A stretch of 64,000 nt of DNA from an uncultured Actinomycetota bacterium (GCA_963726755.1 CAVSDB010000001.1:1341225-1405224), one strand, 5' to 3'; counted from the first letter of the stretch, positions 11,829 through 28,117 are shown. Made by a program: numbers and translations. The notes: generated by a model not told the origin, from the sequence alone.

Positions 11829-13474
11829 TCAGTACTGCGGCTTGAGCTCTGCCGTCGTCTTGGCGCCCCACACCGCGTTCGTCCACTGCGGGAAGTACGG
11901 CGGTGCGGAGAACTTCAACCGTGAGTCGTAGCCGTAGTCCTTGAGGTACCCGGTACCGCTGCTGGAGCCAGTACCGACGATGCCACGCCAACGCTGAGCG
12001 ATAGAGCCGCGGACTGACAGCGTTCCCATCTTGGCGCCATCGTCGTAGGACTGGACCCAGAAGCTGTGCTGCAGGGTCTGGATCGAGGCGTAGATCCAGA
12101 TGTCCGACGGCGACTTCAGGTTCGTGCCCCGAGCTGTTCACCGGGTGGGCGACGACCACCGAGTTGGCCGCCACCAGTCCAACCATGTCCGAACCGGTGG
12201 GGTTCGAACCCGATCGGCGTGCTGGCCAGTAGGAGGTCGTCGGTCACGATGATGTTGTTCTGCGCGGCCAGCGTGACCCGACCCTTCACAGTTCCCTCGA
12301 CGTAGAGGTTGCCGTTGCCGCAGTAGAACGTCGTCAGGTCGTTGGCGACGTCGCCAGCCATCGGCAGGCCATCACCGATCTGACCAGTCGTGCACTTAGA
12401 GGTCGTCGATGCGTTCTTGACGTAGACGACGCCCTCGTTCGGCACTGCCACTGTCTGCGGCCAGGCCGCGGACGGGTTACCGCAACCGGTGCCAACAACG
12501 GTGCCGGCGCTCTTGGTGCTCCAGACCGTCATGGTGCCGTTGCTGTTGAACTTGATCCGGGTGTCGCCGGTGTACTGGCAACCGGGGAAAGTGGAGAACT
12601 GGGCGCTGTTGTCGGGTAGGTAGAGCAGCGGGGCGTACTTCGCGGTGGTGCCGTTGAGGTTCGGCGTACCGCTTCCGCGCTTGCAGTTGTTGATGTTGTA
12701 CGGAGTGTTGGCGCACGTCGAGGCGGACGTCTCGTAGCCCTTCATGAACTTGACCGAGCCACCCATCAACGGCGTGTCGTTGAAGTGCACAGCTCCATCG
12801 AGTACGTCACCTGTGGCGAACTGGATTTCGACGCAGCCACGCGAAGAGTTCTGCCAGTAGTACTTGGCTTTCGTCGGTCCGCTCTTTCCGCAGGCGTCCG
12901 AAGGCGCACCCGAGGGGTAGGCCTGCTGGTTCGCCGGGTCGGCGTCCTCGAAGTCGGTGTAGTACAGGAAGTCAGTCGATCCACCACGTGACACCAGAAC
13001 CTGAATGGTGCGTGAGTGACCATTGACGCGACCGGTTGAGGTCACCCGGATCACGCCCTGGCTGAAGATGGTGCTGGGGTCGACGTCGTAGTGGAACGCT
13101 CCAGCTGCCGGGTTACCGGGCTGCAGATTCTGCCAGCCAACTGCCGTTGCCGTCGTCCAGCCGCAACTGTTCGTGCCGGCCTTCGGACCCTTAAGCGCGT
13201 TGTTGGTGCAGTCAACGGTCGTCCAGTACGAGTCGTTCTGGTTCAGTCGCGCGATGTAGTCGTCAATACCCGACTGCGCTGCGGCCAACGACGCGTTCCA
13301 GTCTTGGTCGGCGCGTGAACTGGTCTGCGCCTGCTGCGCAACCATGTACGCAGAGGTCATAAGCATGCCGAGAATCAGTGTGGCAGCCATCACCATGATG
13401 AGGGCGATGCCCTCTTCTGGGTGAGATGAACCCAGGCGGCGAGTGAAGAAACGGAACATGGTGACTCCTGTCAC
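11829..13474 (-). pseudogene. large pilus-associated protein (minor pilin/tip adhesin-like, PilX/PilY-type candidate); C-terminus split over 3 frames
   Basis: Track ORF 12116..13474 (452 aa, hydrophobic pseudopilin-like N-terminus GIALIMVMAATLILGML) continues in ORFs 11809..12186 and 11829..12029 in other frames. Confidence 0.45.
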
Positions 13475-14187
13475 GGACTCGACGAGGGCTGCGGGACGGC
13501 ATCTGCGTTCGGGAGGGAAACTCTGGTGGTGTACGAGGTGGGCGGAACTCCGTTGAGGGTGGAGGTCTGGACCGACACGTAGACATCGACACTGTCGACG
13601 GACGCGAGATCAGCAGCTGATAGGGGTCCGCCTGTTCCCAGTTTCACGCCGTCTTTGTTGTAGTACGTAAACAAGTCCGTCGTAGCAAGAACACCGGTCG
13701 CAAGCCTGCGGGTGTTGACTACGCAGCCACCGGTGCCAGGCGTGCAGTACTGGTAGTTGTAGTCCGTGGGTGCGTGAGCATTGGGCGGCTGGATCGTCTC
13801 CCACAACTCGCCATTTGTTCTACGTTCATATGTCACACGGCTCGGTCCAACGCTGTTCGAGTCGTTGTTGACGTTCGCGTAGAACTGCACCTTGCTTGGC
13901 TCAGCCTTCAAGAACGCAGCCAAGTCACACCCGGTGCACGTACCGTTCAACTGCGAAGGCAGCACAGCCGTACGAAGGTTGCGCGAGATCGCCTCCATGG
14001 AGAGGCGTCCTTGCTGGCTCTGGTCGGCGCGCGTGATGTTTGCAGTCGTCGTGCGCTGCGCCATGATCAGCGTTCCCTGAACCGCAGCCATCACGACGCC
14101 CAGGATGAACACCGCCACGAGAATTTCGACCAAGGTGAAGCCGCGGTCTGTCTCGTTGTCCCTCAACCGCTTCTGAATCCATCGCAT
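13471..14187 (-). CDS. minor pilin with prepilin-type N-terminal cleavage/methylation domain (PilV/PilW-like)
   Basis: Track ORF 13471..14292 trimmed to Met of MRWIQKRLRDNETDRGFTLVEILVAVFILGV. The GFTLVE motif marks a class III signal peptide. Start overlaps the upstream stop (TGATG). Confidence 0.7.
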   Translation of the reverse strand: MRWIQKRLRDNETDRGFTLVEILVAVFILGVVMAAVQGTLIMAQRTTTANITRADQSQQGRLSMEAISRNLRTAVLPSQLNGTCTGCDLAAFLKAEPSKVQFYANVNNDSNSVGPSRVTYERRTNGELWETIQPPNAHAPTDYNYQYCTPGTGGCVVNTRRLATGVLATTDLFTYYNKDGVKLGTGGPLSAADLASVDSVDVYVSVQTSTLNGVPPTSYTTRVSLPNADAVPQPSSSP

Positions 14188-15624: not shown

Positions 15625-15663
15625 CAGTTGCATCTGATTCACCCTGGGTAGTACAATGGGTGA

Positions 15664-16077
15664 TCAGTTGTTCACGCAAACGCCGCCGGCAGCCTGGAGG
15701 CCACCGTCGTTGCTGTCGTAGATCCAGTTGGCCTGCGAACCAGGCTGCGCACCGGCGATACGAGTGATGGTCACGCAGTAAGACGAACCGATGGTCGAAA
15801 CGGCCACCGCTGCGTTGTTACCTGGCGAAAGCTTGACTGCAGCAGGAACCGCAGCCGGGTAGGTCTGAGTGTCAGTGAACGCAGTTTCCATCTCGTTGGC
15901 CACCGCGCGAGCGTCAGCCTTCATCGATGCGTCAACAGCCTTCTGACGCTGGTTCAAGAACACCGGGATAGCAATAGCAGCAAGAATACCGATGATGATA
16001 ACGACGACCAGGAGCTCGATGAGGGTGAAGCCTTCCTCATTCTCGTCCATGGCCTTACGGATGCGAGCGAGCATCAT
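15664..16077 (-). CDS. pilA: type IV major pilin PilA, copy 1
   Basis: Track ORF 15664..16128 trimmed to the MM start with GAAGGGA ribosome-binding site. MMLARIRKAMDENEEGFTLIELLVVVIIIGILAAIAIPVF is a canonical type IVa prepilin leader plus N-methyl-Phe helix. Confidence 0.85.
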   Translation of the reverse strand: MMLARIRKAMDENEEGFTLIELLVVVIIIGILAAIAIPVFLNQRQKAVDASMKADARAVANEMETAFTDTQTYPAAVPAAVKLSPGNNAAVAVSTIGSSYCVTITRIAGAQPGSQANWIYDSNDGGLQAAGGVCVNN

Positions 16078-16317
16078 TTGTCCCTTCAGGACGTAACGGT
16101 GAGCCGTACGGCGCTCGCCCTGGACCACCCCTAAGGGCTGACCGAGGTAGCTGGGCTAACCACATGGGTCCCCTGGCTTTGCGAACCCGCCTCACGACGG
16201 GAGTGCCTTGTCTGGCCGGTTGGCTCTTTACAAGTACTGTTTCGACCCCCCACATACCCGTCTTGAGCCACGATGATCACAGACTTCACCGGCGAGTTCC
16301 ACCGCTGACAACAAGCA

Positions 16318-16351: not shown

Positions 16352-16395
16352 TCCTGCTAGTGATAATGCGATCAGATGATCTGGTGATCAGCCGA

Positions 16396-16809
16396 TCAGT
16401 TGTTCACGCAGACCCCGCCGGCAGCCTGGAGGCCACCGTCGTTGCTGTCGTAGATCCAGTTGGCCTGCGAACCAGGCTGCGCACCGGCGATACGAGTGAT
16501 GGTCACGCAGTAAGACGAACCGATCGTCGAAACGGCCACCACTGCCTTGTTACCTGGCGAAAGCTTGACCGCAGCAGGAACCGCAGCCGGGTAGGTCTGA
16601 GTGTCAGTGAACGCAGTTTCCATCTCGTTGGCCACCGCGCGAGCGTCAGCCTTCATCGATGCGTCAACAGCCTTCTGACGCTGGTTCAAGAACACCGGGA
16701 TAGCAATAGCAGCAAGAATACCGATGATGATAACGACGACCAGGAGCTCGATGAGGGTGAAGCCTTCCTCATTCTCGTCCATGGCCTTGCGGATGCGAGC
16801 GAGCATCAT
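16396..16809 (-). CDS. pilA: type IV major pilin PilA, copy 2 (one amino-acid difference from copy 1)
   Basis: Track ORF 16396..16860. Identical 154-aa translation except SPGNNAAVAV vs SPGNKAVVAV. Confidence 0.85.
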   Translation of the reverse strand: MMLARIRKAMDENEEGFTLIELLVVVIIIGILAAIAIPVFLNQRQKAVDASMKADARAVANEMETAFTDTQTYPAAVPAAVKLSPGNKAVVAVSTIGSSYCVTITRIAGAQPGSQANWIYDSNDGGLQAAGGVCVNN

Positions 16810-17270
16810 TTGTCCCTTCAGGACGTAACGGTGAGCCGTACGGCGCTCGCCCTGGACCACCCCTAAGGGCTGACCGAGGTAGCTGGGCTAACCACTGGGT
16901 CCCCTGGCTTTGCGAACCCGCCTCACGACGGGAGTGCCTTGTCTGGCCGGTTGGCTCTTTACAAGTACTGTTTCGACCCCCCACATACCCGTCTTGAGCC
17001 ACGATGATCACGACTTGGCATCACACCCAGACGGCCCAACGTCCAGTGGCGCCTTCAAGAGCCGGCGTGCTCTGCGCGCTCCTTGATCCCATGGAACGTC
17101 CCGCGAGCCATGACAGATCGGCGGGGATGATGGCCATGAGCTGCGCAGCGAGTTCGTGTGGGGATCCACCTCACGACGGTGAAGAAGGCAGTCCCGGCCC
17201 AAATGGCTTCGGGGCTGGTGTCGATGGTGATCGCAGGGTTAGTCGCGACCTGCGGACAGGCTTCCCCTGA

Positions 17271-17805: not shown

Positions 17806-19428
17806 GTGGATCCTGGCTCCGAGCGGATAGCGCGACTACTGGACGCCGTGCTCGCGGTCAGTTCCGATCTCGATCTGTCCCAGGTGCTGTCCCGAATCGT
17901 CCAATCTGCCTGCGATCTGGTCGACGCGAGGTATGGCGCCCTTGGTGTGCTCGCTCCGGAAGGTGAACACCTGGTCGAGTTTGTGACCCAGGGACTCTCC
18001 GACGCGAACGGCGGGCTATTGGCGACCTGCCGCACGGGCGAGGAATTCTCGGATTGCTGATCCGTGACCCTCAACCGCGACGCGTCCGCGACATCGCGAC
18101 GCATCCGGCCTCCTACGGTTTCCCGCCAAACCATCCGCCTATGCACAGCTTCCTGGGGGCGCCCATCGCCATCCGCGGAAGAGGTGTTCGGCAACCTCTA
18201 TCTGGCCAACAAGCAAGACGCACGTGGAGTTCAGCGCAAGACGATCAGGAAGTCGTCGTCGCGTTGGCCGCGGCTGCTGGCGTCGCCATCGACAACGCGC
18301 GCCTGTACGACCGATCGCGCCGGCAACGCGAACTCGCTGACGCGCTTGCCGAGATGACGCAGCATCTTCTGGAAGGCATGGAAACCGACGCGGCCCTTCG
18401 CTTGATGGCCCGGCGCAGCGCTGAGATGGCGGTTGCCGAGCTCGCCGTCGTGGCGCTGTATGACGAAGGTGGTCGACTTACCGTCCGCGCGACCAACGAC
18501 GAACGACCCTCGCATGGTGTTGGCCTTGAACTTGACCCCGACTTTCGATGGAGCGAGTTGGTCGCACGCCGGTTGCCATATCTCATTTCCGAACCCGACC
18601 AAGACTCGAACACCGAGCTGGCTGAAATCCGACAACTGGGTTCACTGGATCCCGACGGTCCCACAGCGATCGTCGCCATCGCAGTCGGTGACGCCGAGCT
18701 CGGGGTGCTTGGCGTCGCATGGAACTCTGACCAAGACGTTGCCGCCCGTCAGTCACTCGACTCTTTACACACCTTTGGGCGAACGGCTGCGCTAGCCCTC
18801 GAGGCAGCAACTGCTCAACGTGAGCGTGGGCGGGTAGCACTTCTTGAGGATCGAGACCGAATCGCTCGAGACATGCATGACCACGTGATTCAACGGCTGT
18901 TCGCCACCGGACTGTCGTTGCAGTCGACCAGGCTGATGACGTCGGATGACGCGGTGTGCCAGCGACTCGACGAGGCCGTGGACGCGATTGACGTGGCGAT
19001 CAAAGACATTCGAGAGGCGATCTTCGCGTTGCATCGTCCGATCGGAGGTCTTGGTGTTCAGGCCGAAGTCGACGAACTTGTCCGCCACGCCGGCCGCACG
19101 CTGGGGTACAACCCAGAGGTCAGCACGAGTGGATCGTGGGGCTCTCTGCCGTTCGGAGATAGAGCCGGAGTTGTTGGCAGTCGTCCGCGAGGCCCTGTCG
19201 AACGTCGTTCGCCACGCTCAGGCGAGCTGGTGTCGAGTGTCGGTCCACGTGACCGATTCGGTTGTGAGAGTCGAGGTGGAAGACGACGGAATGGGGATTC
19301 CCAAGGACGCTGAGTTGAGCGGACTCAGGAATCTCGAGCGACGAGCTGCCCGGCTCGAACGGCAGCCTGCAGTTGGCCGCTCGCCATCCAACGGGAACCG
19401 TCCTCATGTGGCAGGTGCCGGTCAAGTA
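17806..19428 (+). pseudogene. GAF-GAF-HisKA_3-HATPase sensor histidine kinase (DevS/DosT-like); at least 5 frameshifts
   Basis: ORFs 17806..18060, 18054..19313, 18064..18357 (GEEVFGNLYLANKQDARG GAF signature) and 18946..19524 (HATPase: LAVVREALSNVVRHA...VEVEDDGMGIP). HisKA_3 RDRIARDMHDHVIQRLFATGLSL. The true C-terminus LAARHPTGTVLMWQVPVK* is in yet another frame. Confidence 0.7.
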
Positions 19429-19435
19429 GGGCAGG

Positions 19436-20078
19436 TCAAGAGTCAGGTTGCTGTTGGTGGGTTACCGCAAACACCGCAGCCTGCGTTCGACGCTGCATGC
19501 CGAGCTTTCCCAGTATCGACGTGACGTAGTTCTTGACCGTCTTCTCGGCCAGCGACATCGATTCGCCGATTTGCGCGTTCGTCTGTCCGTCGGCAATGTG
19601 TTGCAGAATTCGTCGCTCCTGCGGAGTTAGCGCTGACAGTCGAGGATCTGTTCGAGTGTCGCCCCAGCGGTCGCGGATCTGCGCGCGACGCGCTTCGTCG
19701 ATCAGTGACTCACCGGCCGCCACCTTGCGTATCGAGTCGACCAGAGTGTTTCCCTTGACGTCCTTAAGTACGTACCCGGCAGCACCGGCGCGATCGCGCT
19801 TGACCAGCGCCTGCTCGTCGTCGTACGACGTCACGATGAGCGCTGCGATGCTGGGATCAACGGAACGAATGTCTCGACAGGTATCGATGCCCGACCCATC
19901 GGGCAGCCGCGCATCCAACAGCGCGACATCGGGACGAAGCGCCGGAATCCTGCGAGTTGCTTCGAGAGCCGAACCCGGACTCTCCGACCACTTCGATGTC
20001 GTCCTCGCGCTCGAACAACTCTCGGAGCCCGCGTCGGACGATCTCGTGATCGTCGAGAATGAACACCCGAATCGTCAT
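19436..20078 (-). pseudogene. NarL/LuxR-family response regulator (DevR-like); one frameshift near 19950
   Basis: Receiver N-terminus in ORF 19857..20078 (MTIRVFILDDHEIVRRGLRELFERED). Rest, including the HTH (LTPQERRILQHIADGQTNAQIGESMSLAEKTVKNYVTSILGKLG), in ORF 19436..19918. Confidence 0.75.
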
Positions 20079-20172: not shown

Positions 20173-21395
20173 CTACTTGATGAGGTCGAAGACCTTGAAG
20201 ATGGGCATGTACAGGGCGATGATCATGCTTCCGACGAGACCACCGAGCACTGCGATCATCAGTGGCTCGATCAGCGCAGTCAGCGACTCCGTGGTCGACT
20301 CGACTTCTTGGTCGTAGAACTCACTGATCTTCTCGAGCATGGCGTCCAGCGCACCGGTGTCTTCACCGACCGCCAGCATCTGCACGACCATGGGCGGGAA
20401 GATCGCGTGGTGGGTGAGTGGTTCGGTGAGCGACTCACCATTGCGGACGCTGTCCTGGACGTCGCGAACAGCTCGTGCCACCACGACGTTGCCCGACGTG
20501 TCGGCAACGATGTCGAGGCTCTGCAGGATCGGGACACCGGCGTGGAGCATGGTGCCGAAGTTGCGAGTGAAGCGGCTGAGCGCAATCTTCTGGAACAGCG
20601 GGCCGAAGACCGGGATCTTCAACTTGATGGGGTCAAGGACGTTACGTACTTGCTCCTTGTGCTTGATCTTCTTCCAGATGATCACGAAGGCGATAAGGCC
20701 AATGGCGATAGGGATGAAGCCCATCTTCAACAGATCGCTCAACTTGACCAGCAGCAGCGTGGGAGCAGGCAGTTGCGCGCCAAGACCTTCGAACATCTTG
20801 GCGAAGATCGGCACGATGAACAGCAACATGCCGGTCACCGCGAGAAGCGCCATCACGAACACCACAACCGGGTAAGTCATGGCGCTCTTAATCTTGCCCT
20901 TGAGGCGTACTTCCTCTTCATAGTTCGCCGCAATACGAAGCAGCACACCGTCCAAGAATCCGCCGACCTCACCGGCTCGAACCATGTTCACCATGAGCGG
21001 TGGGAAGACTGCCGGGTGTTCGGCCGAGCGCGCCGGAGAGCGCGTTACCGTTTTCCACGCTGTTGCGGACCTCGCCCAGGACTCCTGCCAAGCGTCTTGT
21101 TGGGAGTCTGCTCCGAGAGAATGTTGAGGGCACGCATGAGCGACAGACCGGCACCGATCATGGTGGCGAACTGTCGCGACATGACCGCGATGTCCTTGAG
21201 CTTGACCGAACCGCCGAATCCGGGGATCTTCAGTTCGGTCTTCATCCCAGCTTTGTGCTCGGTGATGGTGACCGTCGCGTAGCCCAGGCTTGACAGTTTT
21301 TGTGCCACCGCGCCCTGGGACTCGGCCTCGATCGTCCCCGTGACGATCTTGCCCGCCTTGTCCCGGACCTGGTACTGGTACATCGTCGTTCCCAT
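20173..21395 (-). pseudogene. pilC: type IV pilus platform protein PilC (GspF family); 2 frameshifts
   Basis: N-terminus in ORF 21045..21395, a short middle piece in ORF 20969..21154 (LAGVLGEVRNSVENG), C-terminal two-thirds in ORF 20173..20994. Confidence 0.8.
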
Positions 21396-21415: not shown

Positions 21416-22472
21416 TCAGCCGCGGCCGGTCAGGCGGTTGAAGTCTTCGATGTGATGAGACTTCTCAGCACCGGTTTCGTACGTGATGCGACCCTTGTTC
21501 ACCAGGTCCGCGAGGTGCTGGTCCATCGTCTGCATGCCGTACTTGGTGCCGGCCTGCATGGAGCTGTAGATCTGGTGAGTCTTGCCTTCACGAATCAGGT
21601 TCCGGATGGCTGGAGTTGCCACCATGACCTCGCAGGCCACAACGCGGCCCTTGCCGTCTGCCGTGCGAGCCAAGGTCTGGCAGACGACACCCTGGATGGC
21701 GGTCGCCAACTGAGCGCGCACCTGCTGCTGCTGGTGCGGGGGGAAGACGTCGATGACACGGTCGATGGTCTGCGCCGCGTCCTGGGTGTGCAGGGTCGCG
21801 TAGACGAGGTGACCAGTTTCAGCCGCAGTTAGCGCAACAGAGATGGTCTCGAGGTCACGCATTTCACCGACCAGGATGATGTCGGGGTCCTGACGCAGCA
21901 CGTGCTTGAGCGCGTTCTGGAAGGACTTGGTGTCCTCCCCCACTTCGCGCTGGTTGACCAGACACGACTGGTGGCGGTGCAAGAACTCAATCGGGTCCTC
22001 ACACGTCATGATGTGGTCTTTGCGGTTTCGGTTCGCCATATCCACCAAGTGAGGCCAGGGTCGTGGACTTGCCCGATCCAGTTGGTCCGGTGACCAGCAC
22101 GAAACCTCGCGGGAGCATCGAGAAGTTGGCAACCGACTTGGGAACCCCCAAGTCCTCGAGCCGCTTGATTTCGAACGGAATGATTCGGAAGGCAGCGCCG
22201 ACCGCGTCCCGCTGCCGATACATGTTGACTCGGAATCGAGCCCGACCTGGGACTGAGTAGGCGAAGTCAAGTTCGAAGACTTCTTCGAAGATCTCTCGTT
22301 GGCGCTGGGTGATCGCCGCGTACATCACGCGCTGGATGACCGGCGGAGTCAGGACCGGGTACTCATCCATCTGGAGTGAGTTCACCGTTGACGCGAATCG
22401 CGGGACGTGCCCCAGCCGTCAGGTGAAGGTCGGACGCGCCTCGCTCGAGCATGGCGAGCAGCAGGTCGACCA
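21416..22472 (-). pseudogene. pilT: twitching-motility retraction ATPase PilT; at least 2 frameshifts
   Basis: N-terminus (..DLLLAMLERGASDLHLTAGARPAIRVNGEL) found by hand at ~22380-22470, then ORF 21999..22385 (Walker A LVTGPTGSGKSTTLASL), then ORF 21416..22270 (IEFLHRHQSCLVNQREVGEDTKSF...). Confidence 0.8.
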
Positions 22473-22542
22473 AGATGATGTCTTCGCCGCCCAGCGCGGC
22501 TCGGTGCTGACTCGAGAGTAGGACTCCTCGTTCGCCTCGGAC

Positions 22543-23266
22543 TCAGCCAGCTCCATCGGCGCGCTCTCGGTGCTGCCTTCGACGACCGACATGGCAACCG
22601 GTCCCAGGCTGGTCTCGACCATGATCATGGTTCTCAGGTTCCGCGGGCTCTTCGACGGGAGGCGGAAGTACGTATTTGCTCTCGGCCGCCTCAGCGAGCT
22701 CTGACAGTGCACTGGTTGCCGGCGTCTCGGAGACCTGCGCTTCGGAGTCGCTGGATGAAGCCTCGTCCGTTGGCTGGTCGCTGTAGAACGCCTCGTACTG
22801 CGAGGTCGGCGCGTTGGGGTCCGGCAGCGAGTCAACGTCCACCGCTGCAGCTTCTTCGGCGGCGATCGCCAACGACATCGGCAGGCCAGCTGCTTCCATC
22901 GTGATCGGTGCCGAGTCATCAAAGTCGGCGAGCGCAAAGGTCGTCGGCTCGGTGTTGTCGGTTTCGGGGCTGTTGGGCTCGGGGCTGTCCGTGACCGGTG
23001 TCCGTACTCGAGTCGAGTCCCGAATCCGAGACCACGTCGCTGAAACTGTCCGTCAACGGGTCCGGCGTCGAGTCCTCCGGGACCGAAGTCGGCTCTGGTG
23101 GCTCGGTCGCGACAAAGCCATAGTCAGTAGTTGGTCGCGGGTCGTCGCCCGCGGGTGCGCCACTGAACTCTGAGGTTTCCACTGACAGGCCTCCCTTAGC
23201 CACCTTGCTGTCACGCGCGCTCGGTAGCGGCGTTCCTCCTGCGTCCCATCGGCGTACCGGGCTCAC
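22543..23266 (-). pseudogene. acidic Pro/Ser/Asp/Glu-rich low-complexity protein of unknown function, split over 2 frames
   Basis: ORFs 22919..23266 and 22543..22899 are both strongly acidic and disordered-looking. The overlapping Arg-rich ORF 22419..22937 is the alternative frame. Sits between pilB and pilT. Confidence 0.35.
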
Positions 23267-23279
23267 CCCTTGAGTCCCC

Positions 23280-24977
23280 TCACGAAGAACTAGTCCGCCA
23301 ATAGCCAGCTAGACCACGACGCGCAGGATCTCGTCGAGTGAGGTGACACCCTGCAGCACCTTGGACAGGCCGTCCTCGCGCAGCGTGACCATGCCTTCTT
23401 CGCGGGCCGCGACGGTGATGGCTGCCGACGAAGCGCGTTCGACCGCCAGCCGCTCGATGTTCTCCGAGACGGCCATCACCTCGTGCAGGGCCAGTCGGCC
23501 CTTGTAGCCGGTCTTGGAGCAGGCCGGACACCCGATGGGCCGATACAGCGTCGGCAGCGGCGTGCCCTTGCTCCCACGGGAACCGCGCGGCAACCATGGC
23601 CTCAGCGGTCGGCTCGTAGGCTTCCTTGCACTTCTTGCAGAGTCGACGGGCCAGGCGCTGGGCGAGCACACCGTCCACCGCCGATCCGACAAGGAACGGC
23701 TCCAGACCCATTTCCGTCAAGCGGGTGATGGCCGAGGGGGCGTCGTTGGTGTGCAACGTGGAGAGCACCAGGTGGCCGGTCAGGGCCGCCTCAACGGCGA
23801 TCTGGGCCGTCTCGTGGTCACGAATCTCACCGATGAGCACGATGTCGGGGTCGCATCGAAGGATCGAGCGAAGTGCCGCGGCGAACGACAGTCCAGCTTT
23901 GACGTTCGTCTGCACCTGGTTGATGCCAGCGAGTCGGTACTCAACCGGGTCCTCGACGGTGATGACGTTGACCTCAGGACGAGCGATCTGGTTCAGCGTG
24001 CCGTACAGCGTCGTGGACTTGCCAGAACCCGTTGGTCCGGTGACCAGGATCATCCCGTAGGGCTTGGTGAAACTCGACGAGTAGATCTCGTAGTTGTGGT
24101 CTGAGAACCCGAGGTCAGTCAGCGCCATCGCGGCCTGCGAGTTGTCCAGGATTCGCATGACGACCTTCTCGCCCCACACCGTTGGAAGGGTGGCGACACG
24201 AAGGTCGATCTTCTTGCCGTTGTAGTTGACCGACAAGCGGCCGTCCTGCGGTACCCGTCGTTCAGCAATGTTGATGTCCGACATGATTTTCAGTCGGCTG
24301 ATAACACCGGACTGGATGTTCTTGGGCGACTTCATCACCTGGTGCAGGACACCATCGATGCGGTACCGGACGACGAGCGAGTGCTCGCCTGGCTCGAGGT
24401 GAATATCCGATGCGCGGTCCTGAATTGCCTGCGTAATAAGCAAGTTCACGTACTTGACGATGGGGGCGTCTTCGACGACCTCTTTGACCGACGAGAGGTC
24501 TTCGTCGTCGGCGTCGTTGTCAAGAACCGCCGTGAGGTCATCGAGGTCGGAGTCAGCGCGGTAGTACCGGTCAATGGCCGAGAGAACATCCGCTCGAGTA
24601 GCGACCACTGGCTTGACGTCATAGCCAGTGATCGATCGAACGTCGTCGATCGCGAAGACGTTCGCTGGGTCAGCCATCGCCAGCAGGAGCTTGCCCTCGT
24701 CGTCGACGCGGAGCGGCATCACGCTGTACTTGCGACAGATCTCGCCCTTGACCCGGCCGACGATGCTGCCGTCAACGGGATAGTCGGCCAGGTCGACAAA
24801 CTCAAGTCGAATCTGCTGCGCCAATGCCGCCACGAGCTGGGACTCGGTGAGGAAGCCTCGATCGACCAGAATGCGGCCGAGTGCCTTGCCTTCGGTCTTG
24901 TGCATCTGGAACGCCTCGGCGAGCTGGTCTGCCGTAACCAGGCCGCTCGAAATCAAGATGTCGCCCAGTTGCGTCAC
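23280..24977 (-). pseudogene. pilB: type IV pilus assembly ATPase PilB (GspE family); C-terminal frameshift near 23600
   Basis: Track ORF 23280..24977 carries the N1 domain, Walker A VTGPTGSGKSTTLY and the CKKC zinc motif. The true C-terminus (YRPIGCPACSKTGYKGRLALHEVM...LDEILRVVV) is in ORF 23309..23692. Confidence 0.85.
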
Positions 24978-25319
24978 AGTCCCCGCCTCCCCGGGTGCGT
25001 CTTAGCGCACCGTCGTCTCAGACCACCCACAACCAAGTCGAGTGGCCTCTACTCCCATTCGGCCATTGCCGGGTTGTGCTGAAGGGAATGGGAGCTACTG
25101 CCGTCGACGAAAGCCCCTGAGAACGGGTCCGTCTGGATGAGCGCGTCCGCCAGCGCTACAAACGGTCGAGCTGGCGCCTCTGCGACGTCCCATAGCAGCG
25201 TGCTCCCGTCGCCAAAGACCAGACCGACGTGGCGCGAAGCCGTCGGGATCGCGACGGAAACTGCGCCACGATTCCGGTGCCGCCCTACTCTGGGGCAGGA
25301 ACCGCCAAGCCATCGGTGC

Positions 25320-25895
25320 CTACACGCTGGCCGGAGTGGCTTCGACCTCGTCGAGGACCGAGTAGAGCAGCGCGAGCAGCACTGACTTCACCGACTCCTT
25401 GTCGGTCGCGTCGCAGGGCACCATAGGCACCGCTGGACTGATCCCAAGGGCCTGCCGGATCCTGGCTTCCTCGACCTCGTCGACGCCTTCAGTGCGGTTC
25501 AGCGCGACAACGAAAGGCACTCGGGCCATCTTTCGGAACGCGGCCAGAATGCCAACCGCCTCCTGCAATGAGTCCGAGCGGGTGACGTCCAGCAACAGGA
25601 TGTACCCGAGCATGCCCTCACCCAGGATTTCCCACATGAAGTCGAAACGTTCCTGACCAGGGGTGCCGAACAGATACAGCACCAGTTCGCGATCAATGGT
25701 GATGCGACCGAAGTCCATCGCCACGGTGGTTTCGTTCTTCCGCGACTTGGTGTGGTCGGTGATCCCTCTCTCAGTTGAGAGCACGGTGATCTCACTGATC
25801 GTGCGAATCAGCGTGGTCTTACCAGCCGAGAACGGTCCGGTGATAACGACCTTGACGGCCTGACCACCGTGACGTCGACGCTTGTTGTTGGCCAT
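25320..25895 (-). CDS. small Ras-like GTPase (MglA/CvnD-type 'ATP/GTP-binding protein')
   Basis: Track ORF, 191 aa. P-loop GPFSAGKTT, TTVAMDFGRI, LYLFGTPGQERF (G3) and ALNRTEG (NKxD-like). Start 4 nt after the upstream stop. Confidence 0.75.
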   Translation of the reverse strand: MANNKRRRHGGQAVKVVITGPFSAGKTTLIRTISEITVLSTERGITDHTKSRKNETTVAMDFGRITIDRELVLYLFGTPGQERFDFMWEILGEGMLGYILLLDVTRSDSLQEAVGILAAFRKMARVPFVVALNRTEGVDEVEEARIRQALGISPAVPMVPCDATDKESVKSVLLALLYSVLDEVEATPASV

Positions 25896-25899
25896 GGCT

Positions 25900-27159
25900 T
25901 CAGAGCCCCCGCACGCCGGCGATGAGTCGCAGCATCAGACTGCGATTGACCGTGGGATCACGCTCGATGGCTGCTTCCCCGACGGGTTGTACCGCCGCGG
26001 CAGCCCCGCCCGATGCGGTGGCAGACACCACCGAAGAGGCCTGGGGAGCGACGGGGGCAGCCGGTGGCGCCGGGGGGGCTGGAGCGGCAGGTGACGCAAA
26101 ACTGCTCCGAGCCGGTTCCGGGTGGTCGATAGCACGTTTGGGCATGAACGGTTCGGGTCGCGGCGGAACCACATTGAGCGGATCGTGGGCTCCACCGAGG
26201 AGACCGGGGGCAGCTTGAGCAGCCGCTGGCGCCACAGCAGGTTGCTCAACGGGCGCTGGCTGAGCCGGCACCGCGGGTGTTGACGGGATCTCGGGGAGCA
26301 TGTGAGATTCGGCCGCCAACCCTGGAACCGGTGGGGCTGAGACTTGCGGTTCGGGGGGTGCGCTGGCTGGCGCCAGTGTTTCAGTGGAAGTGGTCGGGGT
26401 GATTTCAAGCGGACCCAGAAGTTGCTGACGTCGCTGAACCAACTCGATGTGATCAGGTGCTTCCTCGTCACGAATGACGAGCATCCCCCGCTGAACTAAG
26501 GCGGTCAGCGTTGCGACCACAGCGAACTGACTTGCTCCAGAAATTTCAACAATGTCGCCAACTGACCGCTGACCGTCGACCAAGGCCAGCAGCGACCATT
26601 CGTCTCGAGTAAGGCTCTGATCACCGGTAACCACGACGGGCATGGTGAGCAGCACGTCTGGCGAAGGAATGACCTTGGATACCGCATCCCAGTTTTCGCG
26701 GCGGGCAGTGGCCTCAGACACCACGTGCTCTGACGAAACCGCGAGCCCGACATCGTCTGGGTTGTCCTCGCCGACGCCGAAGGCAAAGTCCCCCTCGACC
26801 CATCGCAGCAGGTCGAAGACGGAATCGATTGCCTGCTCGAGGGCAAGCTGCTGGATCAGTTCGCCGTTGACTGCCCCGGATTCGAGGAGGGCACGGGCAA
26901 CACCGACACCCTCAGTTGTCGCTCGCTCAACGGCCCGTCGCAATGCTGCGTCGTCGCAGGCGCCAATGCCGACGAGACGACGTGCCAGGGACTGACGTGC
27001 GGCGTTGGAGCACGCACCGGTGACCACTCCGGCGTTGAAGTAGACGACGCCGGTGGCCTGGCCGTTGGCCAGGTGCAACCCCCCGGACTTCTTCGTCAGG
27101 CTCAGCAGCTGGAAGACATCCGGAAGGCTGAAGGCGTCAAGCGAACCTTCGAGCTTCAC
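25900..27159 (-). CDS. PATAN (DUF4388) domain protein with Pro/Ala-rich C-terminal half
   Basis: Track ORF, 419 aa. N-terminus MKLEGSLDAFSLPDVFQLLSLTKKSGGLHL is the PATAN/DUF4388 signature. Second PATAN-like stretch DEWSLLALVDGQRSVGDIVE. Confidence 0.65.
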   Translation of the reverse strand: MKLEGSLDAFSLPDVFQLLSLTKKSGGLHLANGQATGVVYFNAGVVTGACSNAARQSLARRLVGIGACDDAALRRAVERATTEGVGVARALLESGAVNGELIQQLALEQAIDSVFDLLRWVEGDFAFGVGEDNPDDVGLAVSSEHVVSEATARRENWDAVSKVIPSPDVLLTMPVVVTGDQSLTRDEWSLLALVDGQRSVGDIVEISGASQFAVVATLTALVQRGMLVIRDEEAPDHIELVQRRQQLLGPLEITPTTSTETLAPASAPPEPQVSAPPVPGLAAESHMLPEIPSTPAVPAQPAPVEQPAVAPAAAQAAPGLLGGAHDPLNVVPPRPEPFMPKRAIDHPEPARSSFASPAAPAPPAPPAAPVAPQASSVVSATASGGAAAAVQPVGEAAIERDPTVNRSLMLRLIAGVRGL

Positions 27160-27186
27160 GTGTGTTCTCGTTCCTCGTCGTGGTGG

Positions 27187-28008
27187 TTAGTTCCAGGAGC
27201 CGTTCTCTGGAGCGACTGACGAGCCTGCTGCCGCCACCGTTGTGCCGTTCGAGTTCGATCGATCATCACGCTCGGCACGGCCATTCCAGGCACCCGTCCC
27301 GTTCGCTACTGGCGCCGGGAGGTACGAGGTGTCATCAGGCTCAGCCAACTGCGCGACCGGCTGCACCTGGTGCACCGGCTCGGGCTGTTCCTGCTGTTCC
27401 TGATGTTCTGGCTGCTCTTGCTGGTCGACGAGGCTGTGTTCTGCCAGCAACGGAATGGTCTCCTGGGGGGCTTCCTCGACCGGCTCCAGGGTGGGCATCA
27501 CCGGGGCGATGACCGCCAGTACTGGCTCTGCGACGGTTTCGGGAGCGGCTTCTTCAGGCACTGGAGCCACGGCGACCAGCGGTGGCTGAGTCGACTCGTG
27601 CTCGACGCGAAGGCTATTCGCGACTGCTTCGGCTGCCTGCTTGACCTCGAACAGCATCAGGCCGACCTTGGCGCCGCGGCGTCCGACTGCGACCAGTACG
27701 GCCTCGTCGTCGGCGCTGACCAAGAAGACCGTCCCGTTGTCACCCTCGACGTAGACCTGGGAAAGCTCCCCGCGGCCTAGTCCTTGGGCCGCCCGCTCGC
27801 CCAGTGAGAGCAGCGCCGCCGACATCGCGGCTACCCGGTCTTCGTCCATACCCGCGGGTAGGGCCGAGGCCATGGGTAGGCCGTCGAACGACACCACCGA
27901 TGCGGCCTCAAGATCGGGGGCTTGTCTGAGCAACGTGGCGAGCACGTGGTCGAGCTGGGCCGATCGGTTGCTCGCCCCGGCTGTTGCACCGGCGTATGGG
28001 TCGGACAT
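27187..28008 (-). CDS. Roadblock/LC7 (MglB-like) domain protein with Gln/Glu-rich C-terminal tail
   Basis: Track ORF 27187..28032 trimmed to Met of MSDPYAG with GAGAGG ribosome-binding site. LDHVLATLLRQAPDLEAASVVSFDGLPMAS...GTVFLVSADDEAVLVAV is typical Roadblock/LC7. Confidence 0.65.
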   Translation of the reverse strand: MSDPYAGATAGASNRSAQLDHVLATLLRQAPDLEAASVVSFDGLPMASALPAGMDEDRVAAMSAALLSLGERAAQGLGRGELSQVYVEGDNGTVFLVSADDEAVLVAVGRRGAKVGLMLFEVKQAAEAVANSLRVEHESTQPPLVAVAPVPEEAAPETVAEPVLAVIAPVMPTLEPVEEAPQETIPLLAEHSLVDQQEQPEHQEQQEQPEPVHQVQPVAQLAEPDDTSYLPAPVANGTGAWNGRAERDDRSNSNGTTVAAAGSSVAPENGSWN

Positions 28009-28117
28009 AGTGCACCTCTCGCACGGAACCACTCAACAGAACGCACTCAAGAGAACGTCCCCGTCGACTTCAAAAGGCGTCCGTCCGCGACGGTGCCTGG
28101 GATGTGCTTCGGCGCTG

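Follow-up and report, generated by a model that had tools for sequence, protein, structure and literature searches.

Four co-oriented, closely spaced genes open the pil gene block between aroE and aroC in the window, a 64,000-nt stretch of DNA from an uncultured Actinomycetota bacterium, and many actinobacterial genomes share this arrangement. The order is Roadblock, PATAN, GTPase and small ORF, followed by pilB-pilT-pilC, all on the minus strand; the first three genes are referred to here as the triad. We infer that the locus is probably an accessory, kinase-less small-G-protein switch that acts on PilB and PilC through the PATAN protein, by which the triad would exert on/off or polarity control over the pili. 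No new kind of system is revealed, and the novelty attributed to the triad in an earlier, sequence-only reading was overstated, because the order MglB>PATAN>MglA had already been tabulated as MglA Group 5 (Wuichet and Sogaard-Andersen, 2014).

Gene order and reading frames at the head of the pil block

27187–28008, minus strand: Roadblock/LC7 (MglB/CvnB-like) gene (Pfam Robl_LC7); alternative GTG start at 28032
25900–27159, minus strand: PATAN(DUF4388)-winged-helix scaffold gene, 419 aa (Pfam DUF4388)
25320–25895, minus strand: small Ras-superfamily GTPase gene, 191 aa, CvnD-like and of the "MglA Group 5" type (Pfam/TIGRFAM)
25049–25313, minus strand: small conserved ORF, fourth of the module (tblastn, jackhmmer, gene tables of three relatives)
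23280–24977, minus strand: pilB, T4P extension ATPase (T2SSE, MshEN, TIGR02538)
21416–22937, minus strand: pilT, retraction ATPase, start uncertain (tblastn with intact relatives)
20173–21395, minus strand: pilC, platform protein (tblastn; T2SSF in orthologues)

The triad genes lie at the positions assigned to them by the sequence-only reading, co-oriented on the minus strand and with no internal stop, and their description as intact holds in that the reading frames are unbroken in this assembly. The ATG at 28008 proposed as the Roadblock start is the likelier one, because GAGAGG precedes it. The triad genes are closely packed with no overlap, 27 nt separating the Roadblock stop from the GTG start of the PATAN gene and 4 nt the PATAN stop from the ATG of the GTPase gene. 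The triad had been placed immediately upstream of pilB; the small conserved ORF at 25049–25313 in fact intervenes, with a spacer of 6 nt after the GTPase gene and one of approximately 70 nt before pilB. The hairpin at 25040–25095 that had been named as a possible transcript boundary lies inside this ORF and is not terminator-like, since a pattern scan for terminators was empty there and the RNA fold was no better than that of shuffled sequences (z = 0.08). The triad belongs to the pil island and not to the aro backbone, aroC, aroK and aroB together with pilM and pilO being at the far end, and pilB, pilT, pilC, PilM_2 (E = 1.2e-46), PilO and N_methyl are encoded together, as in a T4P cluster.

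The small ORF directly follows the GTPase gene in 60 of approximately 74 genome loci (tblastn and jackhmmer). Its orthologues are 58–102 aa long and share the core V.L.F.DGS...L....P.AR.F..VA..L after a basic GRHR patch; genes of this size are called at the same position in three relatives, and these three have no Pfam match. In the window, the conserved core is out of frame with the ATG at 25313, and the frame of the core (25387–25049) has no start codon ahead of it.

PilB is identified by T2SSE (E = 3.9e-120), MshEN (E = 6.1e-23), TIGR02538 (E = 3.7e-166) and NF053729 (E = 8.8e-18), and the MshEN c-di-GMP motif is located at its N-terminus. Its frame is lost near 23600, after about residue 470, and tblastn recovers two segments, in frames −3 and −1. 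The pilT gene, whose T2SSE annotation is taken from orthologues, changes frame near 22047 (tblastn segments 22562–22047 in frame −3 and 22048–21419 in frame −1), and pilC changes frame near 21090 and again near 21010, giving three tblastn segments in three frames. In total, at least nine frame changes affect aroE, the small ORF, pilB, pilT, pilC and a minor pilin, all within 15–29 kb, and a two-component pair at 18054–19918 is likewise disrupted. This clustering, together with the lack of frame changes in the upstream genes aspS, rarA, alaS, ruvX and mltG and the position of the sites outside homopolymers of five or more, is in favor of the module here being a relic that has yet to decay, left by a dying pilus island and devoid of current function. 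Such a relic is nevertheless very unlikely: at approximately one frame change per kb nearby, the chance of none in the 2.7-kb triad is about 0.07, and its intactness is mildly non-random; a real aroE pseudogene would be odd because aroB, aroK, aroC, pilM and pilO are intact; and frame breaks occur even in alaS and mltG of sister long-read metagenome assemblies, which makes local consensus error a plausible alternative. Where they align, the pil proteins show no clear acceleration in the window relative to relatives, which also speaks against the relic, and for the same reason this rate comparison cannot decide whether the frame changes are real. If the decay is real, the intact triad beside frame-changed pilB, pilT and pilC hints at a pilus-independent role.

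The encoded proteins and their known relatives

Profile searches agree with the family assignments of the earlier reading, matching the first protein to Robl_LC7 (Pfam, E = 2.7e-17), the second to DUF4388/PATAN (Pfam, E = 8.8e-22) and the third to ATP_bind_1 (E = 4e-20), Ras (E = 1.2e-7) and TIGR00231 small_GTP (E = 1.8e-12). The nucleotide motifs of the GTPase are intact (G1 GPFSAGKT, G2 TTVAMDFG, G3 FGTPGQ, G4 NR, G5 CDATD), and GPFaAGKTT, TTVAMDFG, FGTPGQ, lNR and CDATD are conserved at 95% or more among 73 orthologues; G4 is without the canonical Asp (NRxE/x). With G1–G5 and the catalytic Gln conserved, the protein is predicted from these motifs to be a functional small GTPase that binds and hydrolyzes GTP. 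Its PDB sequence matches are Rab/Sec4 (E = 1e-4) and MglA (E = 6e-3), and a fold search with its AlphaFold2 model, which is of low confidence (pLDDT 61.5, switch regions below 50), gave generic Ras/Rab matches that do not discriminate MglA from other small GTPases. The Roadblock domain occupies approximately residues 25–135 and is followed by a disordered, Pro/Glu/Gln-rich tail of approximately 140 residues ending in a conserved SW(S/N/T) motif, the C-terminal SWS being kept across orthologues. In a PDB sequence search, the Roadblock protein matches 7f8m (E = 4e-20), and the E-values for the CvnB5 structure 3leq, Rv3364c/MfpD and MglB are 2.3e-10, 3.7e-10 and about 0.3, respectively.

In Myxococcus xanthus, a Ras-like GTPase and a Roadblock protein, MglA and MglB (with SofG and SgmX), decide where PilB and PilT act and whether pili form. 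The parallel drawn with this system by the sequence-only reading stands as an analogy and does not extend to membership, because the window sequences are nearer to CvnD/CvnB (E = 2e-10) than to MglA (E = 6e-3) and MglB (E = 0.3). Similarity to the Myxococcus type (Group 1) is marginal and the G3 motif in the window is F-G-T-P-G-Q, whereas MglA is reported to carry Thr78 instead of the canonical Asp (PMC3000849). Moreover, the Myxococcus mgl genes lie away from the pil genes, and their products act via RomR/RomX, SgmX and FrzS and not via a PATAN protein.

Conservons and the Mfp operon have the same order of Roadblock, middle gene and small GTPase (CvnB-CvnC-CvnD), and the triad has both a CvnB-type Roadblock and a CvnD-type GTPase. 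Streptomyces CvnD has the same FGTPGQ motif as the window GTPase and is 36–44% identical to it, similar to the 38–43% found with the PATAN-linked Deinococcus type; a switch-I insertion of 9–10 residues in two CvnD sequences is missing from both the window and the Deinococcus GTPases. This relatedness, the very strong conservation of the GTPase (orthologues 72–95% identical) and the intact triad beside frame-shifted pilB, pilT and pilC are in favor of a general conservon-like G-protein regulator of development, envelope or stress, which would lie beside the pil genes by inherited gene order and would not act on pili; the known outputs of conservons are likewise development and gyrase protection or drug resistance, not pili. 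We consider such a regulator unlikely. Reference conservons consist of HK-Robl-DUF742-GTPase, whereas the triad has no CvnA histidine kinase at the operon head, aroE being the upstream gene here and in almost every relative, and Pfam gives DUF4388 and no DUF742 for its middle gene. The winged-helix part of that gene product, considered as a possible fused CvnC, aligned to DUF742 with an hhalign probability of 4.9% (P = 0.008); the DUF742 alignment had little depth, as the final search for homologues gave only sequences 79% or more identical.

The PATAN protein has the following parts:

26671–27159, minus strand: PATAN domain, aa 1–163 (AlphaFold2; pLDDT above 90 for residues 1–160)
26806–26991, minus strand: helical insertion within the PATAN domain, aa 57–118 (AlphaFold2)
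26491–26607, minus strand: winged-helix-like domain of three helices, aa 185–223 (AlphaFold2; weak HTH_47/MarR_2 matches)
25903–25968, minus strand: near-invariant C-terminal helix IERDPxVNRSLMLRLIAGVRGL (orthologue comparison; modelled helix 402–413)

The protein had been described as two PATAN repeats, an architecture ruled out by the single Pfam match (residues 4–157) and by the AlphaFold2 model, in which a single PATAN fold and the winged-helix domain are followed by a disordered Pro/Ala linker. Sequence and fold searches gave no solved structure of a PATAN domain or of any relative of the protein, the best matches being a MarR protein by sequence (E = 0.019) and a Foldseek match with E = 0.035 by fold. 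As in the cyanobacterial PatA-type regulators (PixG, PixE and PilG; PATAN-REC), the PATAN domain contains a helical insertion. The window protein differs in having no receiver domain (no Response_reg match in Pfam), in being flanked by GTPase and Roadblock genes instead, and in its additional winged helix, disordered linker and C-terminal helix. The helical insertion (residues 62–109) aligns in register with residues 8–55 of the PilB N-terminus, the MshEN tandem helices (hhalign, P = 3.5e-4), a signal obtained by profile comparison only, as BLASTP between the two gave no match. The C-terminal helix is near-invariant among the orthologues, those of PATAN-only loci included. Its hydrophobic moment of 0.35 is moderate and presumably falls between those of the MinD and FtsA sequences; its sequence is no more than suggestive of membrane targeting. 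A mid-linker motif, VVPPRPEPFLPKR, was rejected as a candidate Roadblock docking site, being missing in 38 of 92 full-triad proteins with no clean correlation.

The winged-helix domain raises another possibility, that the PATAN protein is a DNA-binding transcription factor set by the GTPase and Roadblock and that the module controls transcription of the pil operon and not the motor. The module is immediately upstream of the genes that would be regulated, residues 185–230 give weak winged-helix/MarR-type matches, PF12802 is precomputed for some homologues, and MarR-family structures are among the weak fold matches. However, the HTH_47 and MarR_2 matches (E = 7e-4 and 2e-3) are below the Pfam thresholds, and the segment is, from its sequence, net acidic with a hydrophobic third helix, which argues against DNA binding. 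The long disordered linker and conserved amphipathic helix fit tethering to a membrane or partner better, CvnC/MfpC, which holds the same position in its operon, is likely a GEF and not a DNA binder, and cyanobacterial PATAN domains act post-translationally on PilB and PilC; control of transcription is therefore distinctly unlikely.

Conservation of the module with pilB

Two sets of loci, all from one actinobacterial clade, were compared: 80 species-level genomes recovered via the PATAN protein, for which the evaluable denominators differ by gene, and 49 classifiable metagenome loci anchored on PilB, without dereplication. Co-occurrence with Tfp genes was confirmed in both, the triad preceding pilB-pilT-pilC in 42 of 47 genomes and in 30 of the 49 PilB-anchored loci, counts that are inflated by shared ancestry because of the one-clade sampling. 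In the PATAN-anchored set, which includes Acidothermaceae genomes carrying an orthologous triad and in which PATAN identity is as low as 40%, the Roadblock gene is upstream of the PATAN gene in 73 of 73 evaluable genomes and the GTPase gene flanks it in 72 of 72; pilB is on the same strand and within 11 kb of the triad in the 42 genomes mentioned above. The arrangement recurs in more than 70 other genomes, far beyond chance, and gene tables of three relatives give aroE, Robl, PATAN, GTPase, small ORF, pilB, pilT, pilC and pilins.

The remaining five of the 47 genomes lack pilB in the 11 kb next to the triad, which is in favor of a conservon-like regulator that only neighbors the pil genes. In those of the five that were examined, glycosyltransferase genes are found there, the same type of insert as stands between the triad and pilB in other genomes (Wzy_C or GT4/DUF1972 glycosyltransferases), and pilB may be located past the end of the retrieved flank. 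Wzy_C and GT4/DUF1972-type glycosyltransferases are enzyme families used in pilin glycosylation. Moreover, in three loci with genes inserted between aroE and the triad (L051, L062 and L081), pilB still follows, within approximately 2–2.5 kb of the PATAN start.

The PilB-anchored loci form a reductive series: the full triad is present in 30, PATAN and GTPase without Roadblock in 3, PATAN only, directly upstream of pilB, in 6, and none of the three in 10, in 6 of which aroE abuts pilB. Because close relatives of the window PilB occur without the triad, the module is accessory. PATAN is ahead of pilB in 39 of 49 loci and outlasts the other two genes, which makes PATAN the core linked to pilB and the G-protein pair an add-on that can be lost. 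Retention of PATAN alone upstream of pilB after loss of the GTPase and Roadblock genes is hard to explain by synteny alone, which further argues against the conservon-like regulator and for a switch acting on the pilus motor.

A putative G-protein input to the pilus motor

In the model that we favor, the GTPase, whose nucleotide-binding motifs and catalytic Gln are intact, would cycle between GTP and GDP, and the Roadblock protein, probably a dimer, would be its GAP, by analogy with its relatives MfpD/Rv3364c and MglB, which have been tested experimentally; the GAP activity of MfpD toward the CvnD-type GTPase MfpB is proven. The PATAN-winged-helix protein, in the position that CvnC, a likely GEF, has in conservons, may serve both as the partner of the GTPase and as the output element. 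[quoted passage not shown] Engagement of the extension motor, and possibly its site, would then depend on which nucleotide the GTPase carries. The presumed input is thus a nucleotide switch in trans, whereas that of the cyanobacterial PatA-type regulators is phosphorylation in cis, and the G protein would take the place of the phosphorylatable receiver domain.

MglA Group 5 modules contain the same three families in the same order, and in the window and its relatives the GTPase gene is likewise beside PATAN and MglB-type Roadblock genes. Table S2 of Wuichet and Sogaard-Andersen (2014) includes Acel_1323 (193 aa) of Acidothermus cellulolyticus 11B in this group and gives MglB>PATAN>MglA also in Aquificae, Roseiflexus and others, and the main text states that Group 5 neighborhoods "vary widely." Beyond what is described there, the module here has a conserved, operon-like connection to pilB-pilT-pilC, a fourth small ORF, a PATAN protein with a winged-helix domain and a C-terminal helix, and a Roadblock protein with a long tail, and its loci form a reductive series that ends in PATAN alone. 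No experimental characterization of an MglA Group 5/PATAN/MglB module was found in the literature searched, and this linkage is not described in that on Acel_1319–1324, actinobacterial pilB with DUF4388, or Actinoplanes pili; PATAN, GTPases and Actinobacteria all go unmentioned in a 2024 review of PilB cofactors.

Cooperation of PATAN with MglA/MglB-type proteins in pilus-based motility has been predicted since 2006 (Makarova et al., 2006, for the PATAN/MglB link, as described by citing papers), and the cases that have been tested are scattered, MglA acting without PATAN in Myxococcus and PATAN without a GTPase in cyanobacteria. We tentatively suggest that the locus could be the first clear small-G-protein module wired to the T4P machine in monoderm Actinomycetota, in which the Ras-like GTPase, with the Roadblock protein as its GAP, stands in for the receiver as the PATAN input gating PilB/PilC, PATAN being the ancestral motor adaptor to which a G-protein layer was added and from which it was repeatedly lost. 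All the players and their presumed target, pilBTC, are in one compact, widely conserved operon-like block, of which natural variants lack one or two components, so the prediction is directly testable in cultured relatives, for example Acidothermus cellulolyticus 11B or Acidothermaceae strain B102. If true, the block would provide a simple operon-encoded model of the control of pilus motors by PATAN and a prokaryotic Ras-like GTPase, and would link the poorly understood conservon-type G proteins of actinobacteria to a concrete molecular machine.

The triad within its pilus island

The families to which the sequence-only reading had assigned the three triad genes are borne out by profile searches, and all three genes lie without internal stops on the minus strand of the window, the G+C content of which is ~62%.

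Triad genes, the fourth small ORF and pilB
27187-28032, minus strand: Roadblock ORF, no internal stop (Robl_LC7, E 2.7e-17, profile search)
25900-27159, minus strand: PATAN protein, no internal stop (DUF4388/PATAN, E 8.8e-22, profile search)
25320-25895, minus strand: small GTPase, no internal stop (ATP_bind_1, E 4e-20; Ras, E 1.2e-7; TIGR00231 small_GTP, E 1.8e-12)
25049-25313, minus strand: fourth small ORF, 58-102 aa in orthologues, without Pfam family
23280-24977, minus strand: pilB (T2SSE, E 3.9e-120; MshEN, E 6.1e-23; type IV-A PilB equivalog, E 3.7e-166)

The genes are closely packed with no overlap, the spacers being 27 nt between Roadblock and PATAN and 4 nt between PATAN and GTPase; the likeliest start of the Roadblock gene is the ATG at 28008, which is preceded by GAGAGG. 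The pilB profile match stops near residue 470 because the reading frame is lost. The order of the triad relative to pilB was read correctly from the sequence, but the two are not strictly adjacent, because the fourth small ORF separates the GTPase gene from pilB. This small gene is real: it directly follows the GTPase gene in 60 of ~74 genome loci (jackhmmer) and has the conserved core V.L.F.DGS...L....P.AR.F..VA..L, which in the window is in a different frame from the ATG (25313). The hairpin formerly placed at 25040-25095 falls inside the 3′ end of this ORF; the RNA fold of the region is no better than that of shuffled sequence (z 0.08), and a search for terminator-like sites found none in it.

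Upstream of the triad, on the same strand, are aspS, rarA, alaS, ruvX, mltG and aroE, and downstream are pilB, pilT and pilC, followed by a GAF histidine kinase and a NarL-type regulator, two tandem pilin genes, minor pilins, pilM, pilO and then aroC, aroK and aroB. From this gene order, the triad opens a pilus island of ~20 kb that is inserted between aroE and aroC. The gene tables of three relatives give the order found in the window (aroE, Roadblock, PATAN, GTPase, a gene of 58-102 aa, pilB, pilT, pilC, pilins). A tandem duplication covers the major pilin gene (154 aa) together with its flank (15662-15961 and 16394-16693, 98-100% identity, 732 nt spacing; flank at 16165-16280 and 16896-17011). 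Between pilC and the pilins, 18054-19918 contains a GAF-HisKA_3-HATPase histidine kinase on the plus strand, split over two frames, and a NarL/GerE-type response regulator on the minus strand with a truncated receiver domain; close relatives, locus L009 among them, lack the pair here.

At least nine frame changes occur in aroE (two), the small ORF, pilB, pilT, pilC (two) and a minor pilin (two), and the two-component pair at 18054-19918 is disrupted too. All breaks fall between 15 and 29 kb, at sites outside homopolymers of five or more; there are none in ~9.5 kb of upstream housekeeping genes (aspS, rarA, alaS, ruvX and mltG) or in aroB, aroK, aroC, pilM and pilO. This distribution would be expected if the triad in this genome were a relic of a decaying pilus island. 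Real decay, however, would leave a broken aroE beside intact aroB, aroK and aroC, which is odd, sister long-read assemblies carry breaks even in alaS and mltG, and the pil proteins show no clear sign of fast evolution. A relic is very improbable. The frame changes themselves may reflect either real decay or local consensus error; at the local rate, the chance of zero frame changes across the 2.7 kb triad is ~0.07.

Association with pilB among relatives

With one genome taken for each species, the PATAN-anchored scan gave 80 loci, all from Actinomycetes (labelled Nanopelagicales, Sporichthyaceae, Acidothermaceae, Frankiales or Mycobacteriales) and all from MAGs save the complete genome of Acidothermaceae strain B102. 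The Roadblock gene is upstream of PATAN in 73 of 73 evaluable loci and the GTPase gene downstream in 72 of 72. Within 11 kb after the triad, pilB follows on the same strand in 42 of the 47 loci with full flanks, so the triad does co-occur with type IV pilus genes in related genomes; the absence of such co-occurrence was what the sequence-only reading had named as refuting its interpretation. Because PATAN identity falls to 40% across the 80 loci, the arrangement is old.

Five loci (L054, L057, L060, L064 and L067) have no pilB within 11 kb. One of these, L057 (AP028633.1), has GT4 glycosyltransferases after the triad, and the DNA downstream of the triad in L054 and L067 includes a large DUF1972/GT4 gene, the one that stands between triad and pilB in L046, L066 and L073; in L002, a Wzy_C (O-antigen-ligase/PilO-like) gene lies between the GTPase gene and pilB (12111-13997). 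Wzy_C proteins and GT4/DUF1972 glycosyltransferases are enzyme families used for pilin glycosylation, and the inserted genes may constitute a pilin glycosylation island in a subset of relatives. Given these inserts, pilB at the exceptional loci may lie beyond the fetched flank, after the glycosyltransferase genes.

A metagenome scan anchored on PilB (query residues 1-457) returned 80 loci with PilB 72-79% identical, 49 of them classifiable; these loci are not dereplicated, and the data of both scans belong to a single clade, so that the counts are indicative and do not represent independent events.

Genes upstream of pilB in the 49 classifiable PilB-anchored loci
Full triad: 30
PATAN and GTPase, Roadblock missing or degenerate: 3 (L146, L151, L164)
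PATAN protein alone, between aroE and pilB: 6 (L117, L123, L125, L130, L157, L160)
aroE adjoining pilB: 6 (including L103, L104, L109, L116, L153)
None of the triad within 5-10 kb of pilB: 4

PATAN is ahead of pilB in 39 of the 49 loci and is the last component lost; at the PATAN-only loci, the protein still has its winged helix and its terminal ..LRLIxGVxGL helix. The G-protein pair thus forms a layer that can be removed, and pilB also occurs where all three triad genes are missing. The metagenome relatives form a reductive series (full triad, PATAN and GTPase, PATAN alone, nothing), always directly upstream of pilB; the Roadblock and/or GTPase genes of L139, L146 and L164 appear truncated.

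The five loci without nearby pilB, the sequence kinship to conservon proteins and the intactness of the triad beside frame-shifted pil genes in the window could all be accommodated by a pilus-independent, conservon-like regulator that is simply located next to pil genes. Such a regulator is nevertheless unlikely, in view of the PATAN-only loci upstream of pilB and the glycosyltransferase inserts at the exceptional loci.

Protein architecture and known relatives

The AlphaFold2 model of the PATAN protein (mean pLDDT 74.5; residues 1-160 above 90) has one PATAN fold, and Pfam gives one match, instead of the two repeats first proposed. The fold carries a helical insertion at 57-118. C-terminal to it come a winged-helix-like unit of three helices (185-223), ~150 disordered Pro/Ala residues and, at 402-413, a last helix. 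Sub-threshold winged-helix matches are the sole observation pointing to a transcription factor that would control the pil operon; the acidic character of the winged-helix segment and its hydrophobic third helix speak against DNA binding, and such a factor is quite unlikely. The disordered tail ends (25903-25968) in a conserved ..RDPxxN(R/K)SL(L/M)LRLIAGVRGL, a motif retained even in loci that have lost GTPase and Roadblock. The Roadblock protein also has a long disordered tail (27187-27600), with the conserved short end ..SW(S/N/T).

The PATAN insertion (protein residues 62-109) can be aligned in register to the MshEN tandem helices at residues 8-55 of PilB (hhalign P 3.5e-4), a likeness already remarked in the literature; the alignment is consistent with a PATAN-PilB adaptor model. 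The PilB N-terminus (24813-24977, residues 3-55) matches the MshEN-type c-di-GMP-binding motif model NF053729 (E 8.8e-18), from which pilus assembly in this organism is probably also under c-di-GMP control.

The GTPase has intact motifs (GPFSAGKT, TTVAMDFG, FGTPGQ, NR and CDATD), and its orthologues are 72-95% identical. A search of annotated plasmids gave 36-44% identity to Streptomyces "ATP/GTP-binding proteins", which sit in classical conservons (kinase, Roadblock, DUF742, GTPase), and 38% to a GTPase from Deinococcus, the neighbours of which are a weak-PATAN/HTH protein and a Roadblock protein. Locus L085 (Deinococcus sp. NW-56 plasmid, NZ_CP026518.1 148565-151461) encodes a weak-PATAN and HTH protein of 220 aa, then a GTPase (38% identical to that of the window), then Roadblock; this module adjoins an HD-GYP phosphodiesterase, and there are no pil genes within 5 kb. 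Among solved structures, the GTPase has distant matches only (Rab/Sec4, E 1e-4; MglA, E 6e-3), and the Roadblock domain matches 7f8m (E 4e-20), CvnB5 (E 2.3e-10), Rv3364c/MfpD (E 3.7e-10), but MglB only at E 0.3.

The order MglB>PATAN>MglA is listed for Aquificae and Roseiflexus and also for Acidothermus cellulolyticus (Acel_1323) (Wuichet and Sogaard-Andersen, 2014, Table S2), and the triad is therefore a catalogued, though uncharacterized, module type, of the known MglA-Group-5/PATAN/MglB kind; the association of PATAN with MglB goes back to Makarova et al. (2006), as noted in Wuichet and Sogaard-Andersen (2014). The text of the latter, a 2011 survey of Gram-positive pili and a 2024 review of PilB cofactors do not mention pil linkage. 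Apparently undescribed in the searched literature are the conserved, operon-like association with a type IV pilus cluster in an actinobacterial setting, the fourth small gene, the PATAN-winged-helix-tail architecture and the natural reductive series.

A possible GTPase switch on the pilus

Gene content, order, packing, conservation and intact GTPase motifs are directly established at the locus. The GTPase switch on type IV pili proposed in the sequence-only reading is a reasonable inference from them and the likeliest explanation, the novelty of which was overstated in light of Table S2. MfpD (Rv3364c), a relative of the Roadblock protein of the window, acts as GAP on MfpB, a GTPase of the CvnD type, and MfpC, which is homologous to CvnC, is likely a GEF; by analogy, the Roadblock protein would be the GAP of the triad GTPase. 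[quoted passage not shown] The PATAN-winged-helix protein, which occupies the CvnC position, may thus be both the partner of the GTPase and its adaptor to PilB/PilC, and its near-invariant terminal helix might tether it at the membrane or the pilus base, a role to which the hydrophobic moment of 0.35 lends weak support. The GTP/GDP state of the GTPase would then gate pilus extension. For a test of the old PATAN/GTPase/pilus prediction, the locus offers the most compact genomic context.
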